Assembly: GCA_963695555.1 (NCBI GenBank)
Contig: CAVOGR010000001.1
Coordinates: 384,001 to 448,000 of the forward strand
Length of the DNA: 64,000 nucleotides
Reading direction: 5' to 3'
DNA from: an uncultured Gemmatimonadales bacterium
Lineage (GTDB): Bacteria > Gemmatimonadota > Gemmatimonadetes > Gemmatimonadales > GWC2-71-9
Of this stretch, positions 2,740-26,720 are shown piece by piece. The position numbers were made by a program, and so were the translations under genes. The stretch's first letter is position 1; the number at the start of each line of letters is the position of its first letter. The notes under the pieces were generated by a model. That model saw nothing but the letters and a program-made list of their open reading frames with translations, was not told where the DNA came from and searched no databases.

Positions 2740-2746
2740 CGGCAGC

Positions 2747-11825: not shown

Positions 11826-11943
11826 AAGCCCCGCTCGTCGTGACCGACGGCGGGGCTTCTGAGTCGAGTAACGGGCCCGGCGCGACTCGAGCCGAAGGCG
11901 AGCGAGCGGCTTGCGCGCAGCTCAACGCGCGACCTCTTGCTCC
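11826..11943 (-). repeat. Copy of the tRNA-Arg(CCG) 3' half plus hairpin (att-like scar, copy 2) with a 34-nt insertion
   Basis: AACGGGCCCGGCGCGACTCGA (11870-11890) and ACGCGCGACCTCTTGCTCC (11925-11943) are identical to 14740-14779. Hairpin at 11826-11858. Confidence 0.9.
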
Positions 11944-11968
11944 TGAAGGCGAAGACTGACAGCCTCCA

Positions 11969-12169
11969 CTACCCGCAGGGGTGGGTCGGAATCTCGCAGC
12001 AATAGCATCCGTCATCACAAGTGCCCCCGCAGGTGTACGACCCATCGGAATTGCATGCAATGCCCTTGTAAACGGGGTTGGCATCCGCCGCTTGAGATGG
12101 AGACGTGAAGAGCATAGCACCGAAGGCAAGCACCATTGTTGACAATGTCGTCTTGATCCACTTTGACAT
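11969..12169 (-). CDS. Small secreted Cys-rich peptide A (66 aa, 7 Cys)
   Basis: Sec-type signal (..SPSQA-A), then ..CNSDGSYTCGGTCDDGCYCC..CG. Purine-rich RBS AGGAAAGGGTGAG. Confidence 0.8.
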   Translation of the reverse strand: MSKWIKTTLSTMVLAFGAMLFTSPSQAADANPVYKGIACNSDGSYTCGGTCDDGCYCCEIPTHPCG

Positions 12170-12251
12170 GTTGTCTCACCCTTTCCTATAGCTAGTACAT
12201 GGTCTTCGAGAGCGGCTCACCGGTTCCTTCATTGGCACCGTTAGCCGTGTC

Positions 12252-12428
12252 TCAGCAGCATGGCTCGAAGTTGCCGCACCACTTTGTGCAGTTTACTGTG
12301 CCATCAGGATTGCCGTCTCTGAGGTGGAGATCTCTAGCCGTCTCTGCGGAACTGGGAAGGGCCCTGGCACCGACTCCTGCCACGCCAACCACCAACGCTA
12401 TCACTAACCACTTGAGTTTGTTCGGCAT
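12252..12428 (-). CDS. Small secreted Cys-rich peptide B (58 aa; not in the ORF track)
   Basis: Hand translation MPNKLKWLVIALVVGVAGVGARALPSSAETARDLHLRDGNPDGTVNCTKWCGNFEPCC*. GGAGGT RBS. Motif shared with peptide A. Confidence 0.8.
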   Translation of the reverse strand: MPNKLKWLVIALVVGVAGVGARALPSSAETARDLHLRDGNPDGTVNCTKWCGNFEPCC

Positions 12429-12524
12429 TCCGCACCTCCATCGAAGATTGGGAACTCTCCAGTTCTTTCACCGAACCGGGGGATGTCGGACCCATGGACC
12501 TAGTTAGCGCGTATGACCGTAACC

Positions 12525-13091
12525 CTACTCGGCCTCGGAGTCCGGTGCTTGCCGTGCTCTGATGTGCTCAATGACTTCCGTCCCGTCCTGCGCGATGACC
12601 GAGTCGACGACTGTGCCCGCCGAATCCAACCCGAAGTACACAAGCAAAGATGGTCGTGCCACATCCGGGAAGGCATTCTCTCCAAGCGCGATAGTCGGTA
12701 GTAGCAGTTTTTCTTCTCGCAAGAATTGGCAGACAGCCGTGGTGTCGGCTGCGGGCACAACCAGTCTTGGGTGGCGTGATCTGATCGAATCATTACCTGC
12801 CATGGTCCGTAGAAGAAATCCGACGTTCTTGCAGCTCAGACAGAGTCTTGTGGTAAGGATGATGACTTCCCTTGCGCTGTCGCTGGATATGTGGTTGGTG
12901 CAAGCTGGCGCCCCTCGTGATTCACGTACTGCGCCTGCCACGAGAGGTATGGCCTCGGCCGATTGCTGCCACTTCTCAACAAAGGACGGCCGGTTCAGGT
13001 CTGCTCGACCCCAACACCCCACTAGCAGCGCCAAGAGAGACATGGCAGGGCATTGCGTCGTCAGGGACGCTCTCAGTTGGTAGGAAGCCAC
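12525..13091 (-). CDS. Putative lipoprotein with CxxC motif (thioredoxin-like?)
   Basis: LLVGC lipobox. Beta-strand followed by LCLSC and a helix. Overlaps the 3' end of the upstream gene. Confidence 0.6.
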   Translation of the reverse strand: MASYQLRASLTTQCPAMSLLALLVGCWGRADLNRPSFVEKWQQSAEAIPLVAGAVRESRGAPACTNHISSDSAREVIILTTRLCLSCKNVGFLLRTMAGNDSIRSRHPRLVVPAADTTAVCQFLREEKLLLPTIALGENAFPDVARPSLLVYFGLDSAGTVVDSVIAQDGTEVIEHIRARQAPDSEAE

Positions 13092-14165
13092 TTAGCCCGG
13101 CCGAGTGGATAGGGTTCTTCTAGGCTGTGTTCAGGATCCACCAAGGCAAACAGGACGCCGTCTCGGGCTCTGAGAATGGGGGGCGCACCCTCCAGGACGA
13201 GTTCAGCTTCTCTAGGACGCACCACGACAAGAATCATTGGATCCCCATAGTTGAGTATGCCTTTGACAAAGGGGATGATGACATTCCCGCCGTCAACACT
13301 GATGTTGGCGGCAATGTGGAACGTCTTACTCCATTCGCGGAGCCCTTCCAAACCACGGGGAGGAGTTTCCGGCACCCGAGGGGCTTCGTAGCCCGGGATC
13401 CTCAGATGCACTGAGCGAACACGACCGGTCGCAATGTCTACCATCCAGAGAGAGTCGGAGATGGTCTGGACCACATACGCGGTCTGTCCTTCTGCTCCAA
13501 GCCAGTAGCTCGTCATCGATCGCCATGTGGGATGCTGCGGCTGTTCCGGTGGCTTCATCTGCTCGCGGTCCAGGTAGCCTTCAAGAAGGGCTCCCTGTGC
13601 GTCGAAATGGTAAAGCACATCGTTTCCTCGACCAGACCCCGTGACCAGGTACGTGGCATCATCGAGGACGGCAAACCCCATGATTGGGGAGAAACCATCA
13701 AGGGCTACAGTCCTGAGGTGTCCTCCTAATGTGTCAAAGACTGAAATCCTACTTATCATCGCATCGGCAACGTGCAGGGTCCGATCAGGGCCGAAACGCG
13801 GATACCTCGGTTGGTTGAATTCCCCAGGACCGGCACCCTTTCGTCCTATTACCTTGAGCAATCTGCCATCTGAGGCGTATAGCTTGACGTTACCCTCCGA
13901 CACGTCACCTATCGCAACTCGTCCCTCTGAATCGACATCCATGCCGGACACACGAATGATTGGTGCAGATGGCGGTTGCTCCAGCCTCATCGTATCTACT
14001 GAGTTCGAAATAGTCTGTGAAGGTGCCTGTCTGAGGAACCGATCGTGCGGCCGCCTCCGGTCGCGCACCTTCCGCTTGACATGCAGAGCCAGCCATGATG
14101 GCGAGGCAGCAAGACACAATCACCTGTGTTCTCAAGCAAGACGGTGTGTTCAGACGGGCCCCCAT
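13073..14165 (-). CDS. 6-bladed beta-propeller (NHL-like) lipoprotein with one frameshift near 14000
   Basis: IGRKGAGPGEFNQP and VAD...RISVFD blade motifs. ATG 14165 has a GGAGGT RBS and lipobox GSAC in another frame, joining at TTC GAA CTC a GTA GAT. Confidence 0.75.
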
Positions 14166-14694
14166 GGACGACCTCCGAGACCAAACAAGTAAGCCAACGA
14201 TCACACGGCTAAGTGGCGGCAAACAGGATGCGTTCCGCCCATTGAAAGATTAATGAAGTGCTGAGAAGGAATCAGCCTAGGCAGCGGCTCCTGACGATTC
14301 AGCGTGCTTGTTGGTGTGCCCCCGCTCATAGTGAACGGCCCGCAGCATCGTCCATGGTATCGAGGAACGTGGCGTCAGAAGTTGCCCACCAGCAGCAACG
14401 AAGCCACCATGCGTTGCCTTCCTGCCAGCAGAAGCGTCTGGCGGCATCATAGCGCCGGGGGATCAACCGACCCTCAACTAACGCTCAACTAGCCCTCGAT
14501 TCCCTGACCTGCGCCGGAACGAATGACGCAGAGCTGTTCCCAAGGCGCTGAGCGTAATACACCAGCTGCATAGATCCCCGCTTCGTATCGTGGTTGGGGA
14601 GCGGGAAGGTGTGAAGCACTCGAAGGTCGAATCAAGAAGGCCCGGCTTATGACCATAATTGTGACCGCGTAGAATCCGATGCCGCAAAAGGCCG

Positions 14695-14727: not shown

Positions 14728-14741
14728 CTAGCTTCCAGCAA

Positions 14742-14815
14742 CGGGCCCGGCGCGACTCGAACGCGCGACCTCTTGCTCCGGAGGCAAGCGCTCTATCCAA
14801 CTGAGCTACGGGCCC
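14742..14815 (-). tRNA. tRNA-Arg(CCG)
   Basis: GGGCCCGTAGCTCAGTTGGATAGAGCG-CTTGC-CT-CCG-GA-GCAAG...GTTCGAGTC..CGGGCCCG cloverleaf. Confidence 0.95.
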
Positions 14816-14821
14816 AAACAT

Positions 14822-14891
14822 CGGCGGTTGGGCGGTTGGGCGGTTCGGCCGCTCCGCTCACTTGCGAACCGCCGAACCCTCGAACCGCCGA
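14822..14891. repeat. Inverted octamer tandem repeats (GGCGGTTG x3 / AACCGCCG-like x3)
   Basis: Seen directly in the tRNA spacer. Confidence 0.7.
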
Positions 14892-14930
14892 GTCGCTACT
14901 TCTAATCTCTCCTTGCTTCCTGTCTCACAG

Positions 14931-15004
14931 TCGGGGCGCCGGGATTTGAACCCGGGACCTCCTGCTCCCGAAGCAGGCGCGCTACCGGGCTGCGCTACGC
15001 CCCG
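14931..15004 (-). tRNA. tRNA-Pro(CGG)
   Basis: CGGGGCGTAGCGCAGCCCGGTAGCGCG-CCTGC-TT-CGG-GA-GCAGG...GTTCAAATC..CGCCCCGA. Confidence 0.95.
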
Positions 15005-15012
15005 GAAACAAT

Positions 15013-15152
15013 CGACTATCGGCGAAGGCCGAGGCTATCGGCTAACGGCTATCAGCTGACTGTCAGTCGGTTTGGCTATTAGCCGCTCCTACCCACTACG
15101 TCCCACATCCTACATCCTACCACCTCACTCCTCACTCCTAAACCACTCACCG
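15013..15152. repeat. Degenerate heptamer arrays (GGCTATC-like; CATCCTA/CACTCCT-like)
   Basis: Seen directly in the tRNA spacer. Confidence 0.65.
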
Positions 15153-15174
15153 CTATGCCTCTCAGCACATCTCA

Positions 15175-15248
15175 CGCGCCCTGGAGGATTCGAACCCCCA
15201 GCCTCCTGATCCGTAGTCAGACGCTCTATCCAGTTGAGCTAAGGGCGC
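15175..15248 (-). tRNA. tRNA-Arg(ACG)
   Basis: GCGCCCTTAGCTCAACTGGATAGAGCG-TCTGA-CT-ACG-GA-TCAGG...GTTCGAATC..AGGGCGCG. Confidence 0.95.
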
Positions 15249-15353: not shown

Positions 15354-17993
15354 CTAGAAATAGTGGCGGACGATGCGGCCCAGGAGACGATGGAGCGGGG
15401 TCGGGCGAACGCCGGCCCGGCGGTTTGCCGCCGCAATCCGGAAGATGATCCGCCACTGCTCGAACAGGGTGCCGTAGGCGCTCCAGAAGCTGTTCTTCGG
15501 ATCGTAGATGTTGGTGGCCTCGGAGGTGACGCCGTTCAGCTCGATGATCTTCAGGTTCCGGCCCGCCTGGAAGTCCTCGGCCGAGGGCACCCGGACGTCG
15601 TAGCGGCCCACGTAGAATCCCTGGTACCCGCGGCTCACCCTATCGATCACGTCGAGAAGCTCCGGTGTGGCGAGCGCCGTGCCGTCCGAGAACCGCGCTC
15701 CCTGGCAGTGATTGCCCAGGTCGCCAAGGGGTATCTCTTGGCCGGCCGCCGGGATGTCATCCAGCCGCGCCTCGTGGCGCCTGAGGAAGAGACTGGCCTG
15801 ACACACGGCCTGGTCGTCGTCCAGGATCAGCTCCTCGAGAGTGCGCACTCCGTCTCCCGCGACGGACTGCAGCCGCTTCCCAGTAATGGCAAAGATCTGC
15901 CCGCGCTCCTGACCAGGCTCGCGATAATAGAAGACCCCGTACTCCTCGCCCGTTACATACTCTTGCAGCAAGACGTCCCGCTTGGCTCCTGCCAGATATT
16001 CCTCGAGCTCGGCGTCGCTTCGAATCACCTCGACCCCGTCACCCCGCTCCCCCACGTCGGGCTTCAAGAGCACCGGGTACGGCAGACCCTCACGGCGCAG
16101 GAACTCGCGCGCCGTCGCCAGCCGCTCACCCAGCGACTGGGCAATCGGGAGGAACTCGGTCTTGGGCAACATGTGCTCGGCATGCGCCAACCCCCGTTGA
16201 ATGCCGATCTTGGATTCGCCCACCACACCGCCGTCGGGTAGCGCCGGGTTGGCTGCGGTGAACAGCGTGAGCGAGCGATGCCGGATGCCGAGCCAGATGA
16301 CGTAGGCCAGAGCGGGCAGGTAGAACAGCCAGGGCGGCCAGAATTCCCATCGAGCGATCCGGCGCCATGTGCCCACCAGCCGCCGCCGACCGTGATGGGT
16401 GAGGAGTCGGAGACCGACGCGGATGGCGACGAACAAGAGGATGGCGAATCCCAAGACCCAGGGCCAGGTCGGTCCGGGGAGGGGCTCGAGGATCTTGGTG
16501 GCTTCGATACCGAAGACGGCACTGGCGCCGACTAAGAGCGGCACCCACAGCGCGACAGCCAAGAGCAGCCAGGCGGCGAACACGAGGAACCGCATCCGGA
16601 GCACGCCGGCCGCGATGTAGGTGACCACCCGGGTTCCCGGAGTGAACCGGCTCAGGAAAATGATGGCTGCCCCGCGGCGCTCGAACCACCGGCGGCTCCG
16701 CTCGATGGTTGTCGGCTTGACGACCCACTTGAGCGGCGCGTGGCCCAGCGCCGGTCGGCCCAGGAACCGGCCGGCAAAATAGATCCCGAGATCTCCGACG
16801 AAGATGCCCGCCATCACGGCCAGAGTGGCCGGCAGGAACGTGATGCTTCCCCGCGCTACCAGGAGCCCCGCCCCGATTCCGGTGAGGTCCTCACTGGCCA
16901 TTGTCGCGCAGGCCAAGAGAAACAGCACGACCAGGAGCGAGAACCCCTGCGCCCCTGGTACGGATCGCGGGTTGAACGGTCTGGCTGCCTCGTGGATTCG
17001 GTCGGGGTTGGCCGTGGCACGTGCGGTGGCCGTTCCGTTGTCCACGCTGGCCACGAATTCCAGGATTGGACCCGCCACCACCTCCGGCTGCATGAAGGTC
17101 ATGAAATGATCACTCCGGATCATGGCGAGTTGGGACTGCGGTACGATGCGATGGTGTTCGCGCGCCGCGGCAGGCGGCACCAATATGTCGTTGTCCCCGT
17201 GAATGATCAGCACCGGTTCCTGCAGTTGCTCGAGGATCTGGCGCAGGGGGCGCTGGTCGGTGTCGTAGAAGTTGCGCGCGTAGGCAGTGTTCAGCCCCAT
17301 CCGGTCGAGCCGTCCGAAGTGCGGAATCCCCTCTTGCACCAAGCTGATGACCCCGAGCTGGAGCGCGTGCACGGCGTGGTTCAGGGTGTAGTCGCCGAGG
17401 AGTTCGAGCTCTTGGACACCGATCGACGACAAGAGCGTGAGCGAGCGCACTCGGTCGGGCGCGAGGCGGCTCAACTCGAGTCCCACGCCGCCCCCCATGC
17501 TGAACCCGACGACATGTACCTGGCCCACGCCGAGCGAGTCGAGGAACTGGAGCACGTAGCGGGCATGCGCCAGAATCGAATAGTCGGGAATCCAGAGATT
17601 CGATCCGCCAAAGCCCGGAAGGTCTGGAGCGAGGACTCGGTGGTCGGCGGCGAGCACATCGCCGAGCCGGCGTACCGAGCGACTGTCGCCCGGACTGCCG
17701 TGCAACAGCAGGATCGGTGGCAACGGTTTAGAGTCGTCCCGCGCGCGTGTGTCGCGGTAGGCCATGCGGACCGGACGTGGCAGAGTCTGCTCGCCATCGA
17801 CGGTGTTGACGTACAGATACGGCAGACCCTGCCACGGGACTTCATCGACGGGATACGCCAATCGCACGGCATGAGAGGCCACCAGGAGCAGGACGTATGC
17901 TCCAAGGAGCCAGGCACCCCAGCGAAGGCGCCGGGGATTCCCGTGCCCCGCGGCCGCCGCCGTGGAGCCAGCGCTGGTCGTCGTCGTGCTCAC
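15354..17993 (-). CDS. Fusion of alpha/beta hydrolase, DedA/VTT membrane domain and ATP-grasp ligase
   Basis: LLHGSPG, DLPGFG and GFSMGG (hydrolase). SED, GD..IY..GR and SRFTPGTR (DedA). WEFWP, KPDVGERG, LQEY, GRYD and IIELNGVTSE (ATP-grasp). Confidence 0.85.
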   Translation of the reverse strand: MSTTTTSAGSTAAAAGHGNPRRLRWGAWLLGAYVLLLVASHAVRLAYPVDEVPWQGLPYLYVNTVDGEQTLPRPVRMAYRDTRARDDSKPLPPILLLHGSPGDSRSVRRLGDVLAADHRVLAPDLPGFGGSNLWIPDYSILAHARYVLQFLDSLGVGQVHVVGFSMGGGVGLELSRLAPDRVRSLTLLSSIGVQELELLGDYTLNHAVHALQLGVISLVQEGIPHFGRLDRMGLNTAYARNFYDTDQRPLRQILEQLQEPVLIIHGDNDILVPPAAAREHHRIVPQSQLAMIRSDHFMTFMQPEVVAGPILEFVASVDNGTATARATANPDRIHEAARPFNPRSVPGAQGFSLLVVLFLLACATMASEDLTGIGAGLLVARGSITFLPATLAVMAGIFVGDLGIYFAGRFLGRPALGHAPLKWVVKPTTIERSRRWFERRGAAIIFLSRFTPGTRVVTYIAAGVLRMRFLVFAAWLLLAVALWVPLLVGASAVFGIEATKILEPLPGPTWPWVLGFAILLFVAIRVGLRLLTHHGRRRLVGTWRRIARWEFWPPWLFYLPALAYVIWLGIRHRSLTLFTAANPALPDGGVVGESKIGIQRGLAHAEHMLPKTEFLPIAQSLGERLATAREFLRREGLPYPVLLKPDVGERGDGVEVIRSDAELEEYLAGAKRDVLLQEYVTGEEYGVFYYREPGQERGQIFAITGKRLQSVAGDGVRTLEELILDDDQAVCQASLFLRRHEARLDDIPAAGQEIPLGDLGNHCQGARFSDGTALATPELLDVIDRVSRGYQGFYVGRYDVRVPSAEDFQAGRNLKIIELNGVTSEATNIYDPKNSFWSAYGTLFEQWRIIFRIAAANRRAGVRPTPLHRLLGRIVRHYF

Positions 17994-18000
17994 CGGTCGG

Positions 18001-18741
18001 CTAGGATGTCGGGGAAGGAGCGACCCGGCCCAAGGTCACAGGATGCTCGGCCGGCGCCGTGCAGGGCGGTCCGGGTGTGTAGCGGAAGCGGATCGTATCA
18101 GGACCGACCTCGATCCGGCTCAGGCTCTGCGTCGCGGCGTCGGGGCGGTGCATGCAGATCGAGACACTCGACCGTTCGGGCTCGTGGCTCGAATGCAAGC
18201 GCTCGAGGAGTGCGGCGCTCAGCGGTTCCTCGGCCAGGGCCCGTGCCTCAACGGCCAACCGCGATGCAACCACACGTTCCTGATCCACGGCCGAGCTGGT
18301 CAGGAGCAGTCCCGCCTTTGGTGAAGACGCGCAGGTGAGGCTCTCACGGTCCCACGCCAGCATGAGCGGTGCCGATTCGGGTTCGAAGATCCCGAGAGTG
18401 AATGGTTCGTAGCGCTCGAGGGCGAGGCGTTCCACCGCCGTGTCGACGGCTTGCTGGGTCGGTAGGTCGAGCAGCGATAGCACCAACAATCCGCGGCTCA
18501 CCCGGTCCGATGGTGGTGGCGTAGGCGTCGAGCCGTAACGGTTGGCCAGGCACGCCGTGATGCCGAACGCGTTGACGCCGATCCAGGTGCCGCCGGCCTC
18601 GCCATCCGTCGGCGCCACAAACCGCACGCCGGAGCGCTCATGCCGCCGGGGCGAGAGTGCCGGCTTTCGCGTGACGCGCTCGTCCCGGTTGAACCAGACG
18701 GAGTAGCCCGCCTCCTGAGGGAGCCACGACAGCGTGCACAC
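18001..18741 (-). CDS. NRDE/TANGO2 family protein
   Basis: GTG start gives MCTLSW..FNRDE. GGTWIGVN and SRGLLV motifs. Start overlaps the upstream TAG. Confidence 0.88.
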   Translation of the reverse strand: MCTLSWLPQEAGYSVWFNRDERVTRKPALSPRRHERSGVRFVAPTDGEAGGTWIGVNAFGITACLANRYGSTPTPPPSDRVSRGLLVLSLLDLPTQQAVDTAVERLALERYEPFTLGIFEPESAPLMLAWDRESLTCASSPKAGLLLTSSAVDQERVVASRLAVEARALAEEPLSAALLERLHSSHEPERSSVSICMHRPDAATQSLSRIEVGPDTIRFRYTPGPPCTAPAEHPVTLGRVAPSPTS

Positions 18742-19265
18742 TATGTGGTGAGCTGACGGTGGACCAGGGTGGATGGGGCGACACCGAAGCTCGCGTGCAA
18801 TTCGATCCCGCCCGCCCGGGCCAGCAGGTTGATTAGCGCGTAATGATGCACCGTGTGGCTCAGCAGGAAGGCCAATTCCCGCCGGACGGTGCAGGGCGCC
18901 CATTCCGGCGGTTGGTGAACCTGGCTCGTGGTGCGGGTGTTGACCGCGATCGTCCGATCCAGCCGGTCGGGAGAAATCTCTGTCAGTTCCCGAACCGTCG
19001 CCTCCGCCCGAGCTCGCGCCGTCGCGATGTTCGTTTCGGTCGCAGGGTCACGTTCCCGGGCGTCGTAGTCGACCCGGCCCGACTCGAGTCCGGAAAAGAA
19101 CGCCTGGTAATGATCCAGGATGTGGCGGTAGTGCGAGCCGATCGATCCGGTCCCGTCCGGGAAGGCGGGCCGTGCGTACAACTCGGCGCCCAGCCGCCCC
19201 AACGCGGCGATGCCCTGCCGCACGATCTCGACGTTGTCGTGGATGGGTGCTATGCGTGCTGCCAT
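18741..19265 (-). CDS. DinB family protein
   Basis: SIGSHYRHILDHY, DYDARER and RELAFLLSHTVHHYA motifs. GAGGAG RBS. Confidence 0.85.
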   Translation of the reverse strand: MAARIAPIHDNVEIVRQGIAALGRLGAELYARPAFPDGTGSIGSHYRHILDHYQAFFSGLESGRVDYDARERDPATETNIATARARAEATVRELTEISPDRLDRTIAVNTRTTSQVHQPPEWAPCTVRRELAFLLSHTVHHYALINLLARAGGIELHASFGVAPSTLVHRQLTT

Positions 19266-20083
19266 TGCGACTCCTCGCTCACCGCGGGCGTGACGGGGTG
19301 TGTGAGCGCGCGGTGGAGCTTCTCGGCTAACGCCTTCCGATCCCGCTCCACGATCGGGTAGGCCCCGAAGGTAACCGTGGCCTGAAAACCGGGAAGCCGG
19401 CACAACTCCGCGAAGTGCGGTCCAAATTCCATGTCTCCCCACCAACACACGGCCAGGTGCGCGGGCGGCGCGTCCGAGGGCGTCCGGTACGACACGCGTG
19501 CGTGGTGCACCGGGTAGCCGTGGCGCGCAGCCACCTCCAAGAGGGCCGGCTTGAGGGGGCGCACCTGCCGGCCGTCCGTGCTGGTGCCCTCCGGGAACAG
19601 AATCACCCCGTCACCCCGCGCCAGCGCCTCCTGGATTTGATCCGATACCCGGAGCGCATCCCGACGGCGTTCGCGATCGACGAAGATGGTCCGCATGGCA
19701 CCAGCGAAGATGCCCCACATGGGCCACGAACGGACCTCGCGTTTGGCCACGAACACACCGGGAACGACGCTCGCCAGGAGGATAATGTCTACATACGATA
19801 CATGGTTGGTAACCAAAATGAATGGCGCATCGGCCGGAGGCGCCCCCTCGAGTACACAGCGCATTCCAAGCAGGTGCGCAACCCCGCCGGCCCACCGGCG
19901 AAACGAGGCCAGCCGCCAGCGCCTGCGCGCCTCCACCGCCGGCAACAGCACGAGCGTGCCCCCGCCCCACAGTATGAACGAGAACGCGGTCCATCCCGCG
20001 ATGCCTGCCAGGCGGGCCACCTGGCGAATCCGTCCCCCATGCACGGCCACGACACCCGCGCTGGTCTCACCCGAAGAAGACAC
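19250..20083 (-). CDS. Lysophospholipid/lyso-aminolipid O-acyltransferase (PlsC/OlsA-like)
   Basis: NHVSYVD, FVAKREV, TIFVDR and FPEGTST motifs. Confidence 0.88.
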   Translation of the reverse strand: MSSSGETSAGVVAVHGGRIRQVARLAGIAGWTAFSFILWGGGTLVLLPAVEARRRWRLASFRRWAGGVAHLLGMRCVLEGAPPADAPFILVTNHVSYVDIILLASVVPGVFVAKREVRSWPMWGIFAGAMRTIFVDRERRRDALRVSDQIQEALARGDGVILFPEGTSTDGRQVRPLKPALLEVAARHGYPVHHARVSYRTPSDAPPAHLAVCWWGDMEFGPHFAELCRLPGFQATVTFGAYPIVERDRKALAEKLHRALTHPVTPAVSEESQWQHA

Positions 20084-20915
20084 GGTAGATCCGCTCGTCG
20101 AGGGCCTGGATGTCCAGCAGCACCAGATAATCGATGGTCTGGAAGCGCCGGTCGATGGCCGGTGGCCCGCAGACGCGCGCGCCGAGGTTCAAGTAGCTCT
20201 GGAACAAGGCCGGGATATGCACCTCCGGCCGCGGACCATCGCGAGTGGGATCAGGCGGGCATTCGAGCCCGTCGAGCGGTGTCACGCGGCAATCGGCATC
20301 CGCGTGCCCTTCCGCGCGCAGGAACTGATAGACCCGGTGTCCGAGATCGAGATCTTGCGACGTGAGCGAGCAGCAGCCGAAGAGATACCGCTTGTGATTC
20401 CATGTGAGGTACTGCGCCAACCCTCGCCACAAGAGCTGGAGGACTCGGCCGTTGCGGTGCGCCTTGGCGACGCATGCGCGACCGATCTCGACGGCGTCTT
20501 CGAGGATGTCGGCGGGGATGCCGCCGAGGTCGAATTCTCCCGCCGAATAGAAGCCTCCCATGGCGGCAGCCATCTGCGCTGTCTGCATGCGGTAGGTACC
20601 TACGATCGCGCCGGTGGGCTTGTGGGTGATAGCCAGATGATGGAACCGTGCATCCAACTCGTCCTCGTCCCTGCCCGTGTGGTACGATTCGGCGAACCCT
20701 TCATCCAATTCGAGATTGAACACCTCGAACCGCAGTTTGAGTATGGCCTCCAGTTCCTCCGGCGATTGGGCAAACCGGAGGGTGTACCCGCCACTAGCGT
20801 GCTCCGAGGTCGGCAGCGCCTTCTGGGCGACCGGGTATCCGGCCACACCGATGTTCACTGCCGGATCCTGACGGCGGTGCGGACTGGATTGCACGGGGAT
20901 TCGCGGTTGGGTCAT
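20067..20915 (-). CDS. GNAT N-acyltransferase, OlsB-like (N-acyl amino acid synthase family)
   Basis: LRFEVF..EL.EG, D.DE.D....HL, VGTYRM, GFYS..EFDL, EIGRACV, LLWRGL and YLFGC motifs. ATGA overlap with the upstream gene. Confidence 0.85.
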   Translation of the reverse strand: MTQPRIPVQSSPHRRQDPAVNIGVAGYPVAQKALPTSEHASGGYTLRFAQSPEELEAILKLRFEVFNLELDEGFAESYHTGRDEDELDARFHHLAITHKPTGAIVGTYRMQTAQMAAAMGGFYSAGEFDLGGIPADILEDAVEIGRACVAKAHRNGRVLQLLWRGLAQYLTWNHKRYLFGCCSLTSQDLDLGHRVYQFLRAEGHADADCRVTPLDGLECPPDPTRDGPRPEVHIPALFQSYLNLGARVCGPPAIDRRFQTIDYLVLLDIQALDERIYRVFFG

Positions 20916-21673
20916 GAGATTCGCCGATAGGAGGAACGGTCGGCGAACAAGAAGAGCTGGCCGTCGTGACGTTCGAGCCGCCCGGTCACCTCTACCGGCT
21001 CGGCGATGAGGTCGAGCAATGCCTTTCCCGACGGCCGGCCCTGGGCGTCGGCCAGCAACAGGTAGGCAACGACCCCGGCGGAACCGCGCACCACCAACAT
21101 CGGCGGGACACCACCGCTGACACAGCGGACGGCACAGGCACGATGTGGCGTCCAGGTCGCCGGGTTCATGACGCCGAGGAAACACTTGCTGTCGACGATC
21201 TCACCCTGGAGGGTCACCGTGCCGAGGACCTCCGGCTCGGGCCGCGAACCAACGGGGCTATCCTCAGGCCTGCCGGGCGCGACCGACCCCGCGGCCACCT
21301 CGATCATGGTTTGATCGTCGCGATAGATGAGTGAGCCCGCGAGTTCGGCCGGCCGGCCGTCGAGGTCGTGGACGAGCGCGTCGGCGCCGTGCTTACCCGG
21401 CGCGACGAGGTGATAGCGGGATACCGATTTGCCGGGCCGTTCGACCAGGAGCGCGGGGTAGGGGCTCGTCGCGATCAGGCCCTGAAATGCACGCGTCTGA
21501 CCGAATTCGAACGTGGCAGCGTCGAAGCCCTGCTGGCTCCCCGCCACGAGCAATGCGGCGCAGGCCCCGATCACCGCCAGGAAAGCAGTCCACCGGCCGA
21601 CGAATCGAGCGATCCCGGCAGGTGCGCGATCCGCGTATCCGATATAGAACTCATTTTGCGGATGATGGCTCAT
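20912..21673 (-). CDS. Membrane-anchored hypothetical protein with Cys/His motif
   Basis: EFYIGY N-terminus, one TM helix, GEIVDSKCFLGVM..HRACAVRCVSGG. ATGA overlaps. Confidence 0.75.
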   Translation of the reverse strand: MSHHPQNEFYIGYADRAPAGIARFVGRWTAFLAVIGACAALLVAGSQQGFDAATFEFGQTRAFQGLIATSPYPALLVERPGKSVSRYHLVAPGKHGADALVHDLDGRPAELAGSLIYRDDQTMIEVAAGSVAPGRPEDSPVGSRPEPEVLGTVTLQGEIVDSKCFLGVMNPATWTPHRACAVRCVSGGVPPMLVVRGSAGVVAYLLLADAQGRPSGKALLDLIAEPVEVTGRLERHDGQLFLFADRSSYRRIS

Positions 21674-22710
21674 GACTTGGGGAACGTTGCCGGCACGACA
21701 GGAGTTCCGGGCGGATTGGGATGAGGGTCGACGAGCACGCGTTGGCCAATCACTCGCACGTTGAACGTGGGAATCCGCTCCGTGAAGGGCGGGGGCGACT
21801 GGCCCGACTCAGGATAGTACTGATACCCGTGCCAGGGGCAGGTGATGCAACCGTCGATGATTCTGCCCTCCCCGAGGGGCCCGTTCTGGTGCTGGCACAC
21901 GTTGGAGACACAGGAAATCTTACCGTCGGTGCGGAACACCGCTACCCGCTCTCCACCAATTGCGAACACCCGCGCCCGATTCTCCGGAATCTCGCCTGCC
22001 GCGCAGACATCGACATAGCCATCGGACGTTATTGACCTGATATCGCGATCGACCCGCCGCTCTCGGACTGCGGCGGCCAGGTGGAGCCCCACCACCCCAA
22101 CCATGCCGACTCCGAGGAGCAGCGCGAGCACGGGTTGGGCCTCGGCTTGCAGGGCTCCGAACGCCACGTGACCGACCACCAACGCGTACGCTACGTACAC
22201 CAGCATGTGCAGGGCTTTCCAGACCGGCGCCGTCAGGTTGGCCAGCCAAAAATCGTGACTCGTCGCCGCCAAGAGGAATAGGATGCCGAGCGCTGCCAAG
22301 CCGAGCGGTTGGAACGGGAAGCGGGTGAGTGCGGCGTACTCGCCGTCGCCGGTGAGGACGCTCACCAGTGGATGGACGTCGCCCAGGGCATGGAACTGGA
22401 TGATGGCGAACAGGCCGTGTGCGAGGGCAAACGAGAATGTCGTGACACCGAGATGGCGGCGGTTGTAGAGCAGCGGAAGAAACCGGGGGTCGAGCCGGCT
22501 GAGTGGCCCGATGACGACGATAACGTGCAGCAGCACGATGGCCACCAATCCGAGCCCGCGGATCAGGATGGTCTCTAGAGTGGCGTCCGGCTGGAACGCG
22601 ACGGTGGCCGCGGCAAAGGTGCCGAGCACGGTGACGGCGCCGGCGAGGACGATGGCGTCGTAGATCCGCTTTTGACGGGTCCACCCGACCGCCCGGTAGC
22701 GTTCACTCAT
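21670..22710 (-). CDS. Ferric reductase-like (MsrQ-type heme b) membrane domain fused to a Rieske [2Fe-2S] domain
   Basis: RRHLGV, LAATS.D and WKALH.LVY...H motifs. Rieske CQH...CPWHG. Confidence 0.88.
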   Translation of the reverse strand: MSERYRAVGWTRQKRIYDAIVLAGAVTVLGTFAAATVAFQPDATLETILIRGLGLVAIVLLHVIVVIGPLSRLDPRFLPLLYNRRHLGVTTFSFALAHGLFAIIQFHALGDVHPLVSVLTGDGEYAALTRFPFQPLGLAALGILFLLAATSHDFWLANLTAPVWKALHMLVYVAYALVVGHVAFGALQAEAQPVLALLLGVGMVGVVGLHLAAAVRERRVDRDIRSITSDGYVDVCAAGEIPENRARVFAIGGERVAVFRTDGKISCVSNVCQHQNGPLGEGRIIDGCITCPWHGYQYYPESGQSPPPFTERIPTFNVRVIGQRVLVDPHPNPPGTPVVPATFPKS

Positions 22711-23209
22711 CGGATGGCCCCGGGCGGGGTTCAGAGACGGTCAACGCGCCGAGCACCGTGCCATGCGCCACACTATAAAGGACGAGACTGCCCTGGGTTG
22801 CCACCGCTTGGGACGGTAGCTCGAGGCGCTGGGCGCCAGCGTTCCCGATGGTGCCCAGGAAGACCGCATCCCGTGGCAGCGTTTCGGGTGCCGCACCGGT
22901 ACGGGCTGTCCAATAGACCGCGACATCCGGCTCGCGGAGTGCCTCGGTGAGTGTGAGCTCGACGCCGAGGCGCGACCGCAGCGAGTCGGACGTGAGCATG
23001 CGGAGGTGGATGTGCAGATCGACCAACTCCGCTTCGGTGCCCGCGATGGCGGTCCACGTGCTGAGGCTGGGTTGGTTGAGCACCCGAGGTACCCGATCGA
23101 CAATGGGGGCGCGCCGCTTGACGCCGATCGCCGCCACCAGCGCGAGGGGCAGGATCACGGCGAGCATCGCAAAGATCCAGAGATGGCGCCGCCGATGGGA
23201 TCGGATCAC
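22703..23209 (-). CDS. Hypothetical membrane-anchored protein
   Basis: GTGA overlap with the upstream gene. RRRHLWI followed by a TM helix; PD..VYW and LYS..H motifs. Confidence 0.7.
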   Translation of the reverse strand: MIRSHRRRHLWIFAMLAVILPLALVAAIGVKRRAPIVDRVPRVLNQPSLSTWTAIAGTEAELVDLHIHLRMLTSDSLRSRLGVELTLTEALREPDVAVYWTARTGAAPETLPRDAVFLGTIGNAGAQRLELPSQAVATQGSLVLYSVAHGTVLGALTVSEPRPGPSDE

Positions 23210-23484
23210 GGTGCGGTCTCGATCGAGTTGCCTGTCGTGGGGCGTTGATGGGCGGTGCGCTGGCTGGGTGGTTGCCTGCGGCCGCCGACCCACCGGCTGA
23301 GCAAGAGCGGCCAGAGCGCGATCGTGCCGGGGATGATCAGGATGCGGAATCCGATGGTGCCGGACCGGGCGACCGGATCGATGCGCCCGACCCCTCGGAT
23401 GACGAAGGGAATCGCGAAGATGACGCCCGCGATGGCGTAGAGGGACAGCGCCCAGACGAGTCCAGTGGCGATCGGTTGGGACAT
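23206..23484 (-). CDS. Small two-TM membrane protein
   Basis: Y...G..FA.PF...G..RIDP.A..GT.GFR.LI.PG..ALWP pattern. First gene of the coupled operon. Confidence 0.75.
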   Translation of the reverse strand: MSQPIATGLVWALSLYAIAGVIFAIPFVIRGVGRIDPVARSGTIGFRILIIPGTIALWPLLLSRWVGGRRQPPSQRTAHQRPTTGNSIETAP

Positions 23485-23511
23485 TCGCGGCCGGGGGCTG
23501 GGCGGAAAGCG

Positions 23512-23570: not shown

Positions 23571-23644
<74 letters not shown>

Positions 23645-23651
23645 CAAAAAC

Positions 23652-23715
23652 ACGGTAGGACGATACGGTGGCAGGACGGCGCCTACTTACCGTCTTACCG
23701 CCCTACCGTCCTACC
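23652..23715. repeat. Inverted octamer tandem repeats (ACGGTAGG / TACCGTCC-like)
   Basis: Seen directly in the tRNA spacer. Confidence 0.6.
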
Positions 23716-23721
23716 TGTCAA

Positions 23722-23795
23722 TAGCGGGGGTGGGATTTGAACCCACGACCTCCGGGTTATGAGCCCGGCGAGCTACCAGACTGCTCCACCCCGCG
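23722..23795 (-). tRNA. Initiator tRNA-fMet(CAT)
   Basis: CGCGGGGTGGAGCAG. Mismatched 1:72 pair and three consecutive G-C pairs in the anticodon stem around CAT. Confidence 0.95.
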
Positions 23796-23811
23796 ATGAT
23801 TCCGATGCGAG

Positions 23812-23884
23812 AGCGGGAAACGGGACTCGAACCCGCGACCCCAACCTTGGCAAGGTTGTGCTCTACCAACTGAGCTATTCCCGC
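23812..23884 (-). tRNA. tRNA-Gly(GCC)
   Basis: GCGGGAATAGCTCAGTTGGTAGAGCA-CAACC-TT-GCC-AA-GGTTG. Confidence 0.95.
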
Positions 23885-23971
23885 ATTATCGCGGCCTGGA
23901 TTCTAGCCCATTGCCCCAGGCCGGCGCAACCGCTGATCGTGGCCCGGGCACCCGGCTCCGGGCCGCTGGAG

Positions 23972-24044
23972 TGGAGGCGAGGGGGATCGAACCCCTGACC
24001 TCGTGAATGCCATTCACGCGCTCTCCCAACTGAGCTACGCCCCC
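23972..24044 (-). tRNA. tRNA-Ala(GGC)
   Basis: GGGGGCGTAGCTCAGTTGGGAGAGCG-CGTGA-AT-GGC-AT-TCACG; G3:U70 pair. Confidence 0.95.
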
Positions 24045-24098
24045 CAGTATGTTGCCGCGCCACAATAAGTTGCGCCGCGGCAGACGGGGAAGCTAGCG

Positions 24099-24935
24099 GT
24101 GGCTTCCAAGAGTGTCAAGCAGACTTCCACCGCTCTCTTTACACCCTCTCGGGCGCGGTCTACCTTGCAAATCGTGCAACAGCTTCTGGCCGTCCGGGGC
24201 GCCGGGGTGGGTGGAGCAATCGAGCGAGTCGGCCGCGCCGCGATTGACTCCCTTCGGGCCCTGACCGATGTCCGAACGTGGGCCCCGCTGGTCGTCCCCC
24301 AGATGCGACGATTGGGGGTCGACTCGGTCCCCATCGCCATCTTCATTGCCGTCTTCACCGGCATCGTGTTGGCGCTGCTCTCCTCGTACACCTTCACGGG
24401 GGCAGTGCCGCTCTACTTCGTGGGTTCCCTGGTCGGCAAGACGATCATGATGGAGTTGGGACCCGTGCTCACGGGCATGGCGCTCGCCGGCCGGGTGGGG
24501 GCCAACATCGCTGCCGAAATCGGGACCATGCGGGTGACGGAGCAGGTCGATGCCCTGGAGACGCTCGCCTATGATACCAATGCGTTCCTCATCGTCCCGC
24601 GGGTCCTGGCCGGCGGCATCATGTTTCCCGTAGTCACGGCGTTCGCCGTGGCCATCGGCGTCACCTCGGGGTGGATCACCGCCGTCAATCTCCTCGACCT
24701 GTCGACACCGCAGTTCCTCAAGGGCCTGCGGCTCTTTTACGAGTTCAAAGACATCTGGTTCGGGCTGGTGAAGGCGGGAAGCTTCGGCCTGGCCGTGACA
24801 CTCATGGGCTGCCTGCAGGGATTGCGCGCCACCGGTGGAGCCCAGGGTGTGGGTCGCGCCGCTACTCGCGCCGTGGTCCTTGGCTGCGAGTCCATCCTGG
24901 TGCTCGACGCCTTCTGGGCGATCGTCCTGCTCTGA
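24099..24935 (+). CDS. mlaE: MlaE-family ABC permease
   Basis: ELGPVLT, GRVGA.IAAEIGTMRVTEQVDALE and GVGRAATRAVV motifs. Start uncertain. Confidence 0.9.
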   Translation: MASKSVKQTSTALFTPSRARSTLQIVQQLLAVRGAGVGGAIERVGRAAIDSLRALTDVRTWAPLVVPQMRRLGVDSVPIAIFIAVFTGIVLALLSSYTFTGAVPLYFVGSLVGKTIMMELGPVLTGMALAGRVGANIAAEIGTMRVTEQVDALETLAYDTNAFLIVPRVLAGGIMFPVVTAFAVAIGVTSGWITAVNLLDLSTPQFLKGLRLFYEFKDIWFGLVKAGSFGLAVTLMGCLQGLRATGGAQGVGRAATRAVVLGCESILVLDAFWAIVLL

Positions 24936-24945
24936 TGCGCCGGCC

Positions 24946-25716
24946 ATGATACTGTTCGACGGGGTGTCCAAGTCGTTCGGACCGCGCAAGGTGCTGGACG
25001 GGTTTTCGCTCGAGGTGCCCGACGGCCAGACCACGGTCATCGTGGGGTTCTCGGGGTCCGGCAAGAGCGTCGCGCTCAAGCATATCGTCGGGCTGTTGCG
25101 TCCGGATGAGGGGCGCGTGGTCGTCGACGGACAGGTCGTGCACGAGCTGGACCGGGATGGCCTCGCCGAGCTGCGGCGTTCGATCGGGTACGTGTTCCAG
25201 TTCGCCGCCTTATTCGACTCGATGACGGTCGAGGAGAATATCCTGCTCGGATTGGCCCGTCGCGGGCTGAGCCAGGAGGAAATCGAGGACCGGGTCACCC
25301 AGAGCCTCCGGTTGGTGGAGCTCGAGGACGCGCGCCTGCAGCTGCCCGCCGAGTTATCAGGCGGGATGCGCAAGCGGGCTGGCATTGCGCGTGCCATCGC
25401 ACTGGGGCCGCGGTACATGTTGTATGATGAGCCGACGACGGGACTCGATCCGGTCACGTCCGCCGTCATCGATCGGCTCATGATCCGCGTGCGCCAAGAA
25501 TCCGGGGCGACCGGCGTCGTGGTGACCCACGACATGCGCAGCGCCTATACCATTGGGGATCGCATTGCCATGCTCTATGAGGGCGCCATCCGACAAGTCG
25601 GCACGGTGGACGAGATCCGCGCGACCCGCGACCCTCTTGTCCGGCAGTTCATCGAGGGGCGACCCAACGCCCCGGCCGTCTCGGGGCCGGCCCCGAGAAC
25701 TGGAGTTGGGCCATGA
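24946..25716 (+). CDS. mlaF: MlaF-family ABC ATPase
   Basis: GFSGSGKS, LSGGMRKR and YDEPTTGLDP motifs. Confidence 0.9.
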   Translation: MILFDGVSKSFGPRKVLDGFSLEVPDGQTTVIVGFSGSGKSVALKHIVGLLRPDEGRVVVDGQVVHELDRDGLAELRRSIGYVFQFAALFDSMTVEENILLGLARRGLSQEEIEDRVTQSLRLVELEDARLQLPAELSGGMRKRAGIARAIALGPRYMLYDEPTTGLDPVTSAVIDRLMIRVRQESGATGVVVTHDMRSAYTIGDRIAMLYEGAIRQVGTVDEIRATRDPLVRQFIEGRPNAPAVSGPAPRTGVGP

Positions 25717-26720
25717 AGCGCACCAATGAGTTGGTGGTCGGGTCCGTGATCTTGGCCGGGCTCGTCGTGGTGATCGGCGGGGCGATCTGGCTCGGACAAC
25801 GCCGGCTCGCGGGGCAGGTGCAGATCCACACCGCCCGGTTCCGAACCGTCGGGGGACTCGGAGTCGGGGCACCGGTGACGCTTCGCGGCGTGCGGGTCGG
25901 GCGGGTCGAGGCCATTCGTCTCGGCCAAGACGAGTGGGTCGAGATGGACCTCCGGGTCGACCGCTCGGTCGATGTTCCGGCCAACCCTGGCGTCATTGCC
26001 GCTTCGGCCAGCCTGTTCGGCGAATGGGCGGCCACGATCATCACCCTCGACGCACCCCAGGAAGACCCCGCCATTCATACACTGCTCACCGAGGCCGCCG
26101 CGCCTGGCGGCGGAGTCTGGCCGGGCGCGACATTGCCGGATATCGGGAAGCTCACGGCGCAAGCCGGCCGGATCGCCAACGACATCGCGCTCCTCACCGG
26201 CAGGGTCGGCGCCATCTTCGATTCGAGTACCGTGAACGAATTGCGGAGCAGCATCCGGGACTTCGTCGATGTAGCCGACCAATTGCGCCGCTTCACACGA
26301 GGCAAGATGGCCTCGTTCGATACCATGGCACTCGACCTGAGCGGCGGATCGGCGGACTTTGCGGCGGCGGCACGCGGTGCCCGGCTCGCGGCCGAGCGGT
26401 TCGACTCGGCCACCGCGGACCGACAGCTCGCCGACATCATGAACTCGGCGCGGGGGTCGAGCGAGGACCTGCGGCGGGCGTCGGCGGATTTCCGCGCCCT
26501 CATGGAGGCGGCGCGCGCCCACGAAACCAGCCTGACGCGGGTCTTGATCGCGACCGACTCCATCATGTCCCGGCTCGAGAGCGGGTCAGGCACGCTCGGG
26601 CTCTTGGCGTCGGACTCGACGTTGTACGCGGAAGCCACGCTCACGGTGCGCACGCTCCGTGACCTGCTCGAGGACATCCAGGCCAATCCGCGGCGCTACT
26701 TCAAGTTCTCGGTATTCTAG
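25713..26720 (+). CDS. mlaD: MlaD/MCE family protein
   Basis: N-terminal TM, GL.VGAPV.LRGV.VG.V MCE motif, helical tail ending NPRRYFKFSVF. Confidence 0.85.
   Translation: MKRTNELVVGSVILAGLVVVIGGAIWLGQRRLAGQVQIHTARFRTVGGLGVGAPVTLRGVRVGRVEAIRLGQDEWVEMDLRVDRSVDVPANPGVIAASASLFGEWAATIITLDAPQEDPAIHTLLTEAAAPGGGVWPGATLPDIGKLTAQAGRIANDIALLTGRVGAIFDSSTVNELRSSIRDFVDVADQLRRFTRGKMASFDTMALDLSGGSADFAAAARGARLAAERFDSATADRQLADIMNSARGSSEDLRRASADFRALMEAARAHETSLTRVLIATDSIMSRLESGSGTLGLLASDSTLYAEATLTVRTLRDLLEDIQANPRRYFKFSVF

Follow-up and report, generated by a model that had tools for sequence, protein, structure and literature searches.

The stretch of DNA analysed here, called the window, is 64,000 nucleotides long and comes from an uncultured Gemmatimonadales bacterium (contig CAVOGR010000001.1, positions 384,001 to 448,000). 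The host genome (G000; 3.57 Mb) is 87% complete, and close relatives of its proteins carry the label Gemmatimonadales. Positions 15354-23484 of the window (8131 nt) are filled by nine open reading frames (ORFs), all on the minus strand, which are numbered g1 to g9 (Table 1). These genes are a real, tightly packed operon with translational coupling, in which two acyltransferases related to those of aminolipid synthesis are joined by a three-domain membrane protein, a DinB_2-family protein, a TANGO2 homologue and a membrane redox module. The operon is conserved and modular and varies a known aminolipid pathway by adding enzymes without an assigned role; it probably makes a modified membrane lipid that is still undescribed.

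Gene content of the operon

The gene junctions were called with start codons that abut the upstream stop. Read in this way, they agree with a preliminary description of the locus, which reported nine minus-strand genes joined by GTGA, ATGA, TAGTG, short overlaps and a 7-nt gap. The start chosen for g8, and with it the g7/g8 junction, is supported by an M-C-T-L-S-W N terminus that is common to the aligned homologues. Because the same arrangement recurs in other phyla, it is not due to chance. The labels first given to the nine genes, including those of a ligase, a flippase-type protein, an N-terminal nucleophile (Ntn)-type protein and redox proteins, hold at the domain level by comparison with Pfam and, for the ATP-grasp domain, by a profile search of the PDB.

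Table 1. Genes of the operon and features beside it, with positions in the window; the last column gives the junction with the following gene.
Feature	Position	Strand	Description	Junction
g1	23206..23484	-	92-aa small membrane protein, first gene of the operon (ORF and translation)	GTGA, 4-nt overlap; g2 GTG start at 23209 on g1 stop
g2	22703..23209	-	168-aa single-pass membrane protein, poorly conserved, variable component	8-nt overlap, ATGAGTGA
g3	21670..22710	-	ferric reductase-type transmembrane haem-b domain and C-terminal Rieske [2Fe-2S] domain	ATGA
g4	20912..21673	-	253-aa membrane-anchored protein, one N-terminal transmembrane helix, two beta-barrel (OB-like) domains	ATGA
g5	20067..20915	-	OlsB-like N-acyltransferase (GNAT, Acetyltransf_5)	17-nt overlap
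g6	19250..20083	-	OlsA-like lyso-aminolipid O-acyltransferase, PlsC/LPLAT family	16-nt overlap
g7	18741..19265	-	DinB_2-family four-helix metal-binding protein	TAGTG, 1-nt overlap
g8	18001..18741	-	TANGO2/NRDE-family protein, N-terminal Cys (Ntn-type)	7-nt gap
g9	15354..17993	-	879-aa membrane protein, N-terminal hydrophobic helix and three domains	
Upstream tRNA array	23571..24044	-	Ala-Gly-Met-Val	
Downstream tRNA array	14741..15248	-	Arg-Pro-Arg	
Low-G+C stretch	~10900..14200		small ORFs	
480-aa ORF	24093..25535	-	no Pfam family	
MlaD-domain gene	25713..26720	+		

The protein encoded by g5 matches PF13444 with 96.5 bits (Pfam cut-off 22.4) and is the single match to this family in the genome. 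Its best family matches are two OlsB models, aligned over their full length, with scores of 124.8 bits for NF052554 and 111.6 bits for NF052555 that lie under the NCBIfam equivalog cut-offs of 350 and 320, respectively; there is also a weak NCBIfam match to an exosortase-associated acyltransferase (31.8 bits). The g6 protein belongs to PF01553 (84.2 bits), and the residues of its HX4D motif, H94 and D99, are conserved in at least 95% of 22 sequences. It scores 148.8 bits against the OlsA equivalog NF052553 and 119.4 bits against NF052552, under the cut-off of 300 that applies to both.

The three domains of g9 are an alpha/beta-hydrolase (residues ~60-340), a DedA/VTT domain (~348-531) and a divergent ATP-grasp domain (~570-879). 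The hydrolase matches Abhydrolase_1 (PF00561, 111.9 bits), with a catalytic triad of S165 (in GFSMGG), D269 and H296 that is invariant in 18 sequences. Residues 376-490 match VTT (PF09335) with 64.1 bits against a cut-off of 33.9, and the best DedA-type match in NCBIfam is the undecaprenyl-phosphate transporter UptA, with 64.2 bits under an equivalog cut-off of 250. The C terminus of g9 is under every Pfam ATP-grasp cut-off, RimK being the closest (17.6 bits against 21), followed by ATP-grasp_4 (17.2 against 27), and some g9 homologues carry precomputed assignments to PF08443 or PF07478. A profile of the ATP-grasp domain matches the PDB entry 7ta5 ('glutathione synthase') over profile positions 68-256 with E 3.8e-8, followed by entries for GshAB, cyanophycin synthase, Ddl and RimK (among them 3ln6, 6.3e-7, and 7wac, 1.1e-6), with E values up to 4e-5. 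Residues K644, E818 and N820 are invariant in 18 sequences and align to the VVKP and IEIN motifs of 7ta5, and a P-loop-like KPxxGxxG strand is conserved. We take K644 to be the ATP-binding lysine and E818-x-N820 to be the Mg-binding E-x-N site.

An AlphaFold2 model of g9 has a predicted local distance difference test (pLDDT) score of 81.4, and a Foldseek search with the whole model returns a list made up entirely of alpha/beta-hydrolases, headed by esterases and dehalogenases at E ~1e-10. The loop at residues 406-455 contains 11 Lys/Arg residues and the segment past the last hydrophobic helix is Arg-rich, which would place the ATP-grasp domain in the cytoplasm, as ATP use requires. For the side of the hydrolase the indications conflict: the N-in topology of Escherichia coli YqjA (10.1101/2021.10.18.464800), helix parity and loop charges point to the cytoplasm, and an N-terminal Arg cluster ahead of the first helix points to the periplasm. 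At least 687 relatives of g9 occur among contigs chosen as one genome per species, and among the 120 related clusters listed nearly all are full-length and most are ~50% identical. The ATP-grasp domain represents a family of about 1600 cluster representatives at 50% identity (E<=1e-30). By length, the best 150 of these divide into 69 of at least 780 aa, 58 of 480-779 aa and 23 of less than 480 aa; the split forms include ATP-grasp alone and DedA::ATP-grasp, and the ATP-grasp domain is usually fused to DedA.

Between the acyltransferases and g9 lie two genes with intact family motifs. The g7 protein matches PF12867 with 35.1 bits (cut-off 24.8), and H48, H137, H140 and H141 are conserved in at least 95% of 48 sequences. 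The g8 protein matches PF05742 with 45.7 bits (cut-off 22.6), and C2 and N18-R19-D20-E21 are conserved in at least 95% of 39 sequences; the N termini displayed for its homologues read (M/V)-C-T-x-(S/T)-W, bar one that is cut by a contig end.

The first four genes contain the redox module, and g1, g2 and g4 have no family match in Pfam or NCBIfam. Hydropathy analysis finds two hydrophobic 19-mers in g1 (residues 11-29 and 44-62) and one hydrophobic segment in g2 (residues 12-30), and at least 95% of 21 g1 sequences conserve Y16, G20, D36, G45, F46, R47, W58 and P59. The g3 protein matches Ferric_reduct (PF01794) at residues 53-178 with 48.7 bits (cut-off 28) and Rieske (PF00355) at residues 233-304 with 65.1 bits (cut-off 20.3). 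Five histidines (H86, H98, H152, H168 and H181) and the Rieske ligands C272-x-H274 and C291-x-x-H294 are conserved in at least 95% of 24 sequences. Weak NCBIfam matches of g3 are to MamZ and MsrQ, the latter (NF003831) with 38.8 bits under an equivalog cut-off of 130. In g4, a Cys3-His motif stands out: K163, C164, H177, C180, C184, G187 and G188 are invariant in 25 homologues. Its AlphaFold2 model (pLDDT 88.3; predicted TM score 0.77) consists of a helix at residues 19-46 followed mostly by beta strands. The fold matches of this model are weak and generic, to OB folds and beta-barrels (SSB by Foldseek, E 1.3e-4 and TM score 0.21; the C-terminal domain of NlpE by VIA, best Z 7.6), with scores in the range seen for models without a true match, and no function can be deduced from them.

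The g4 family is large, with at least 3175 proteins matching its profile at E<=1e-10. None of the 120 profile matches listed has a Pfam domain, and all source names given read 'hypothetical protein'; the Protein Atlas likewise returns unnamed 'hypothetical protein' clusters only. When g4 is not linked to the rest of the cluster it was found elsewhere in the genome in four of five cases tested, each time directly behind a gene for a ferric reductase domain (FRD)-Rieske protein. In one genome (L092, G041:C3:701457-705161; ORF 1447-3288, minus strand) an FRD, a Rieske domain and a g4-like region form one frame of 613 aa, and the presence of 600-730-aa open frames where g4 matches fall in several further genomes suggests a recurrent fusion. 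The six helices and charged N terminus of g3 indicate a cytoplasmic Rieske domain, and the distribution of charge in g4, together with the g3-g4 fusion, indicates that its barrels would be periplasmic.

Conservation and genomic setting

The nine proteins were compared by tblastn with the best 80 of the at least 687 loci that encode g9 relatives; these 80 lie in Gemmatimonadota, Acidobacteriota, Planctomycetota (including the cultured Rohdeia mirabilis Pla163), KSB1 and other groups. In the 62 loci with a flank of at least 3.2 kb, the genes directly upstream of g9 on the same strand include g5 in 53 loci, g6 in 48, g7 in 40 and g8 in 34. All four of these genes are present in 30 loci, g5 and g6 only in 12 loci that are mostly from Longimicrobiales, and none of the four in six. 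Counted anywhere in the 55 loci with a flank of at least 6 kb, g4 is found in 25, g3 in 23 and g1 in 23, where it lies upstream of g3, and g2 is recognised in only three; a gap between g1 and g3 of at least 448 nt would provide room for a positional equivalent of g2 in 13 of the 23 loci. All nine genes are recognised in one of the 55 loci (L068), as well as in a locus of the same genus, and all but g2 in six. Loci of the Longimicrobiales type are without g7 and g8, and many loci have no redox genes nearby. Where gene order has changed (L058, L060, L074 and L097-L101), the modules are still only a few kilobases apart, as in L101, where ATP-grasp is followed by g5 and then g6. The genes do recur together, strongly and across phyla, both in these loci and in three phylum samples. 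Of the nine-gene pathway first proposed, the linked modules stand and the fixed unit does not: the gene set is modular, with a core of g5-g9, a redox module of g1, g3 and g4, and a variable g2.

The presence of the genes in whole genomes follows the same pattern. In a set of 41 relatives, which includes one unpublished genome (G018) that is negative, g9 (counted by strong matches), g5 and g4 were detected together in 11 genomes, and searches of the remaining 30 found none of the three. Three phylum samples were then searched with identical queries; because related genomes are not independent, the counts that follow are a pattern rather than a statistical test and overstate the support. Among 251 Gemmatimonadota genomes, 32 have the ATP-grasp domain and 32 have g4, with both in 31, ATP-grasp only in one and g4 only in one, which is a fragmented assembly. 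For 151 Acidobacteriota genomes the numbers are 17 with ATP-grasp and 11 with g4, with both in 11, ATP-grasp only in six and g4 only in none, and for 151 Planctomycetota genomes they are 18 and 14, with both in ten, ATP-grasp only in eight and g4 only in four. In Gemmatimonadota, g5 is found in 41 genomes, comprising all 32 with ATP-grasp, one more and eight of one genus; in Acidobacteriota it is found in 18 genomes, 13 of them within the ATP-grasp set. Strong matches of the g8 type in the Gemmatimonadota sample fall in genomes with the g9 ATP-grasp domain in 24 of 27 cases. The genus of the eight further g5-positive Gemmatimonadota genomes, which falls in a different family of the order, carries only a bare pair of g5-like and g6-like genes (50% and 36% identity) with no accessory genes (L094, G093:C1:4421000-4439000), and so offers lipidomics a natural comparison without the tailoring genes. 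The tracking of ATP-grasp by g4, the position of unlinked g4 behind FRD-Rieske genes, the g3-g4 fusion and the proximity of the modules after rearrangement together argue that the redox module belongs to the system.

Several cultured bacteria carry parts of the gene set. On plasmid 1 of Paracoccus denitrificans PD1222 (L105, NC_008688.1 419462-438379) the three domains of g9 are three adjacent genes, with the ATP-grasp 'hypothetical protein' and the alpha/beta-hydrolase on one strand and the VTT protein on the other, and no OlsB or OlsA gene nearby; this species is a tractable model. In Salinivibrio kushneri, genes for VTT, ATP-grasp, DinB and NRDE proteins follow one another, in Azospirillum lipoferum 4B VTT and ATP-grasp are fused (VTT::ATP-grasp), and on a Variovorax plasmid ATP-grasp is followed by an OlsB-like gene. 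Plasmids of Komagataeibacter (Acetobacteraceae) carry a lone ATP-grasp homologue with 34.5% identity among transposases. On a plasmid of Rhizobium leguminosarum bv. trifolii WSM1689 (L109, NZ_CP007050.1 27157-43903), genes for a small protein, a Rieske-domain protein and a g4-like protein lie in a row that adjoins TetR and sigma/anti-sigma genes, and in the 16.7 kb viewed of this one Rhizobium plasmid no g9-type, DedA or ATP-grasp gene is annotated. More distant versions of the redox unit can thus function by themselves.

The operon is flanked on both sides by tRNA arrays on its own strand. The same flanks occur in a locus of the same genus (L010, G002:C7:262333-265720), and the upstream array also in L012; ten other loci are without them, one of which has a lone distant tRNA-Met. 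Insertion of the operon as an island into a tRNA array was considered and rejected, as these flanks are common only to L010 and L012 and the GC content of the operon is the same as that of its surroundings. In L010, overlapping frames interrupted by in-frame stops take the place of intact g8 and g9 homologues, and the match to g7 is partial, which points to either pseudogenes or indel errors in the assembly of this long-contig metagenome-assembled genome. The contig of L012 is labelled Acidimicrobiia and has a Gemmatimonadales-like gene set, so it may be mis-binned. A promoter scan of positions 14600-24300 found no sigma-70-like promoter, and the five terminator-like sites in this region are the same number as in shuffled sequence; a terminator-like hairpin lies between tRNA-Val and g1. 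Contigs from an estuary metatranscriptome that are 97-99% identical to the window cover parts of g9, g7, g6, g5, g4, g3 and g1 and span the g7/g6, g6/g5 and g4/g3 junctions. They are compatible with a polycistronic transcript in a close relative and are weak evidence for expression, because contigs from RNA libraries can derive from DNA and show no transcript ends. Further out, the low-G+C stretch (0.54-0.57, compared with ~0.65) adjoins tRNA-Arg and may be a small acquired islet; its ORFs have no Pfam families, bar a weak beta-propeller match. The 480-aa ORF lies just upstream of the tRNA array and has the MlaD-domain gene as its neighbour.

A possible aminolipid pathway and its alternatives

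The gene content suggests synthesis of an acyloxyacyl amino-acid lipid of the OlsB/OlsA type, followed by ligation of its head group by the ATP-grasp domain, translocation by DedA and tailoring; we put the probability of this reading at roughly 0.55. By family resemblance, g5 would N-acylate an amino acid with a 3-hydroxyacyl chain and g6 would esterify a second chain to it, giving a two-chain lipid. The cytoplasmic ATP-grasp domain of g9 could then turn a carboxylate, which is most likely the free alpha-carboxylate of the head group, into an acyl-phosphate and ligate an amino acid or amine to it, yielding an extended, dipeptide-like or amide head group. Ligation of a carboxylate and an amine is proposed because the nearest solved ATP-grasp relatives extend a free (C-terminal) carboxylate with an amine. 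The fused DedA domain may shift the lipid between leaflets and the fused serine hydrolase may edit or recycle an ester or amide, with g7 and g8 as putative accessory tailoring or editing enzymes. The products of g1, g3, g4 and the variable g2 would form a transmembrane electron-transfer unit, in which electrons could pass from the cytoplasmic Rieske cluster through two haems b to the periplasmic Cys3-His protein g4. As the presence of this unit tracks g9, it probably subjects the same product to a redox step at the outer face. More tentatively, the hydrolase::DedA::ATP-grasp protein may be the long-sought kind of ATP-dependent enzyme that lengthens aminolipid head groups at their carboxyl end, a class of reaction for which only the biochemistry of cerilipin formation is known, and the FRD-Rieske/g4 conduit may redox-modify the head group on the periplasmic face; we hold this specific combination of roles with clearly less confidence than the pathway as a whole.

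The data directly show the order of the genes and their translational coupling, the intact state of the catalytic motifs, the linkage across phyla and the phyletic coupling; every reaction is inferred. Several points weigh against such a pathway. The scores of g5 and g6 lie far under the OlsB and OlsA equivalog cut-offs, so the OlsB-like and OlsA-like labels of the preliminary description hold at the family level and do not establish ornithine as the head group (124.8 against 350 and 148.8 against 300 for the best models). Genes like g5 occur without g9 in eight genomes of one Gemmatimonadota genus and in five Acidobacteriota genomes, and conversely four of the 17 ATP-grasp-positive Acidobacteriota genomes have no g5 match at E<=1e-20. 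The four Planctomycetota genomes with g4 only indicate that g4 is not strictly dependent on g9, and five Rhizobium plasmids carry a g4 relative with 31-33% identity. Genes like g8 are found in other contexts in three Gemmatimonadota genomes (contexts viewed in two), the Salinivibrio, Paracoccus, Azospirillum and Komagataeibacter replicons have the module without adjacent OlsB/OlsA genes, and six of the 62 loci have none of g5-g8 upstream of g9. The indications for the membrane side of the g9 hydrolase, hydropathy included, conflict, and the relatedness of the sampled genomes and the nature of RNA-library contigs, both described above, reduce the weight of the phyletic counts and of the expression evidence.

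Some of these observations are also what would be expected if the DedA, ATP-grasp, DinB and NRDE core and the redox unit were a general envelope-lipid module that acts on another lipid, such as a polyprenyl-phosphate-linked intermediate or a glycerophospholipid head group, and if adjacency to OlsB/OlsA reflected shared regulation and not a shared substrate. This is the main rival explanation, and we consider it unlikely. It would account for the four replicons just named, including the row of four genes in Salinivibrio, for the g5-negative Acidobacteriota, and for L097, which has g1, g3, g4, DinB and DedA::ATP-grasp in a genome without a g5 match at E<=1e-20; UptA as the best NCBIfam match of the DedA domain also points in this direction, although at 64.2 bits it is under the cut-off of 250. 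However, g5 is directly upstream of g9, often with translational coupling, in 53 of 62 loci, every one of the 32 Gemmatimonadota genomes with ATP-grasp also contains g5, and the linkage persists in changed orders such as those of L101 and of Variovorax, where ATP-grasp precedes g5. Moreover, genomes without g5 may use synthases of the OlsF or OlsH type, which were not searched for.

Other explanations give the cluster a different product or direction. A role in turnover, in which the serine hydrolase and a Cys-Ntn TANGO2-like amidase degrade aminolipids or N-acyl amino acids and the remaining proteins salvage the parts, is improbable. Two hydrolase-type proteins with intact nucleophiles, the S165-D269-H296 triad of g9 and Cys2 of g8, are in keeping with it, and hydrolases of N-acyl amides, for example acid ceramidase and bile-salt hydrolase, are found among the Ntn cysteine hydrolases. 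However, the operon also encodes the two biosynthetic acyltransferases and a ligase domain that consumes ATP and has its ATP and Mg residues intact. Many forms do without the hydrolase domain (DedA::ATP-grasp or ATP-grasp alone), and g7 and g8 are missing from Longimicrobiales-type clusters. At least as improbable is a released N-acyl amino acid or short lipopeptide that serves as a signal, surfactant or siderophore-like compound, with DedA involved in its export and the redox unit in metal chemistry. PF13444 is described as also including N-acyl amino acid synthases (PMC11631085), FRD proteins are classically metal reductases according to the survey of that superfamily (PMC3591440), and the weak exosortase-associated match of g5 (31.8 bits) would fit such a product. 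The best matches of g5 are nevertheless the two full-length OlsB models, 48 of the 62 loci have a linked O-acyltransferase of the OlsA type, an enzyme that makes two-chain lipids, and the conserved set has no transporter, non-ribosomal peptide synthetase or TonB-type uptake gene. That the operon makes plain ornithine lipid only, with seven unrelated neighbours, is very improbable: the g5/g6-like pair occurs alone in one Gemmatimonadota genus and so can work without the rest, but the cross-phylum linkage, the phyletic association between the pair and g9, g7, g8 and g4, and the overlapping stop and start codons throughout the operon all argue against it.

Relation to known systems

The acyloxyacyl aminolipid pathway offered here as the preferred reading resembles the OlsB/OlsA pathway, as well as GluB and GlsB/GlsA, in that a PF13444 N-acyltransferase lies beside a PlsC-type O-acyltransferase with an HX4D motif (PMC11631085; PMC12971839). 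It differs in that the head-group amino acid is not set by the scores, and in that the pair sits with seven more genes, none of which is a described modifier; the modifiers named in the relevant part of the review are OlsC, OlsD, OlsE and OlsG. The orders for which that part of the review reports OlsB homologues do not name Gemmatimonadales or Longimicrobiales. The modifications of ornithine lipids described in these sources are hydroxylation, N-methylation and taurine transfer (PMC11631085; PMC12971839). Taurine transfer to the carboxyl group of ornithine lipid, which forms cerilipin in an acetic acid bacterium, is ATP-dependent and was described in enzyme work in the 1970s, its gene being given as unknown (PMC12971839). 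This ATP-requiring amide ligation on the free carboxylate of an aminolipid is the type of reaction expected of the g9 ATP-grasp domain, and the ATP-grasp homologues on the Komagataeibacter plasmids also come from Acetobacteraceae. We infer this link, and nothing points to taurine as a substrate of the present system or to the Acetobacteraceae homologue as the cerilipin enzyme.

MprF is an aminoacyl-phosphatidylglycerol synthase fused to a flippase that uses aminoacyl-tRNA. It provides a working analogy for the design of g9, not a family membership, since in both a head-group-modifying enzyme would be fused to a lipid-translocating membrane domain; in contrast with the aminoacyl-tRNA and different fold of MprF, g9 has an ATP-grasp ligase and a DedA/VTT membrane domain. 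The best solved relatives of this ligase domain, which are the G domain of cyanophycin synthetase, GshF/GshAB, D-Ala-D-Ala ligase and RimK, share with it the KPxxGxxG strand and the E-x-N Mg site. Unlike them, the g9 domain is membrane-tethered and usually fused to DedA, is under all Pfam cut-offs, and forms its own family of about 1600 clusters. A survey of DedA subfamilies makes no mention of fusions to hydrolases or ATP-grasp domains.

The g3 protein resembles FRD proteins of the MsrQ/YedZ type, in which a six-helix dihaem-b domain passes electrons across the membrane to a partner. In those systems the partner is a molybdoenzyme, whereas the partner of g3 would be the unannotated Cys3-His tandem beta-barrel protein g4, and the donor a fused Rieske cluster. 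The FRD-Rieske architecture corresponds to model M4 in the survey of the FRD superfamily, where the description of the model assigns no function (PMC3591440). For g7 and g8, the scores over the Pfam cut-offs and the conserved His cluster, Cys and NRDE place them with the families DinB_2 (PF12867) and TANGO2/NRDE (PF05742), which have no established bacterial reaction; here the pair is linked to an ATP-grasp domain in bacteria from Gemmatimonadota to Vibrionaceae. The preliminary description knew of no characterised pathway with this full gene set, and literature searches of article full text, with supplements unopened, likewise found no description of the gene set or pathway. New here are the coupling of g4 and ATP-grasp counted in three phyla, the g3-g4 fusion, the model and Cys3-His motif of g4, the split and fused forms of g9, and the named carriers.

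Aminolipids are major phosphorus-free membrane lipids with few known modifications, and the operon offers candidates for the orphan ATP-dependent aminolipid ligase activity. It joins standard synthases to large unannotated families, namely the ~1600 ATP-grasp clusters and the 3175 or more g4 proteins, and includes a new membrane redox pair and a bacterial homologue of TANGO2, which provides a handle on the function of that protein. With Rohdeia mirabilis Pla163, Paracoccus denitrificans PD1222, Salinivibrio kushneri and Azospirillum lipoferum 4B among the cultured carriers, the hypothesis is testable in culture. If the more tentative combination of roles given above is true, soil and sediment bacteria would contain an undescribed and widespread class of peptide-extended, redox-tailored aminolipids, and bacterial TANGO2 and DinB proteins would gain a concrete lipid substrate. 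Should the product be abundant in Gemmatimonadota and Acidobacteriota, it would also matter for the reading of environmental lipidomes.

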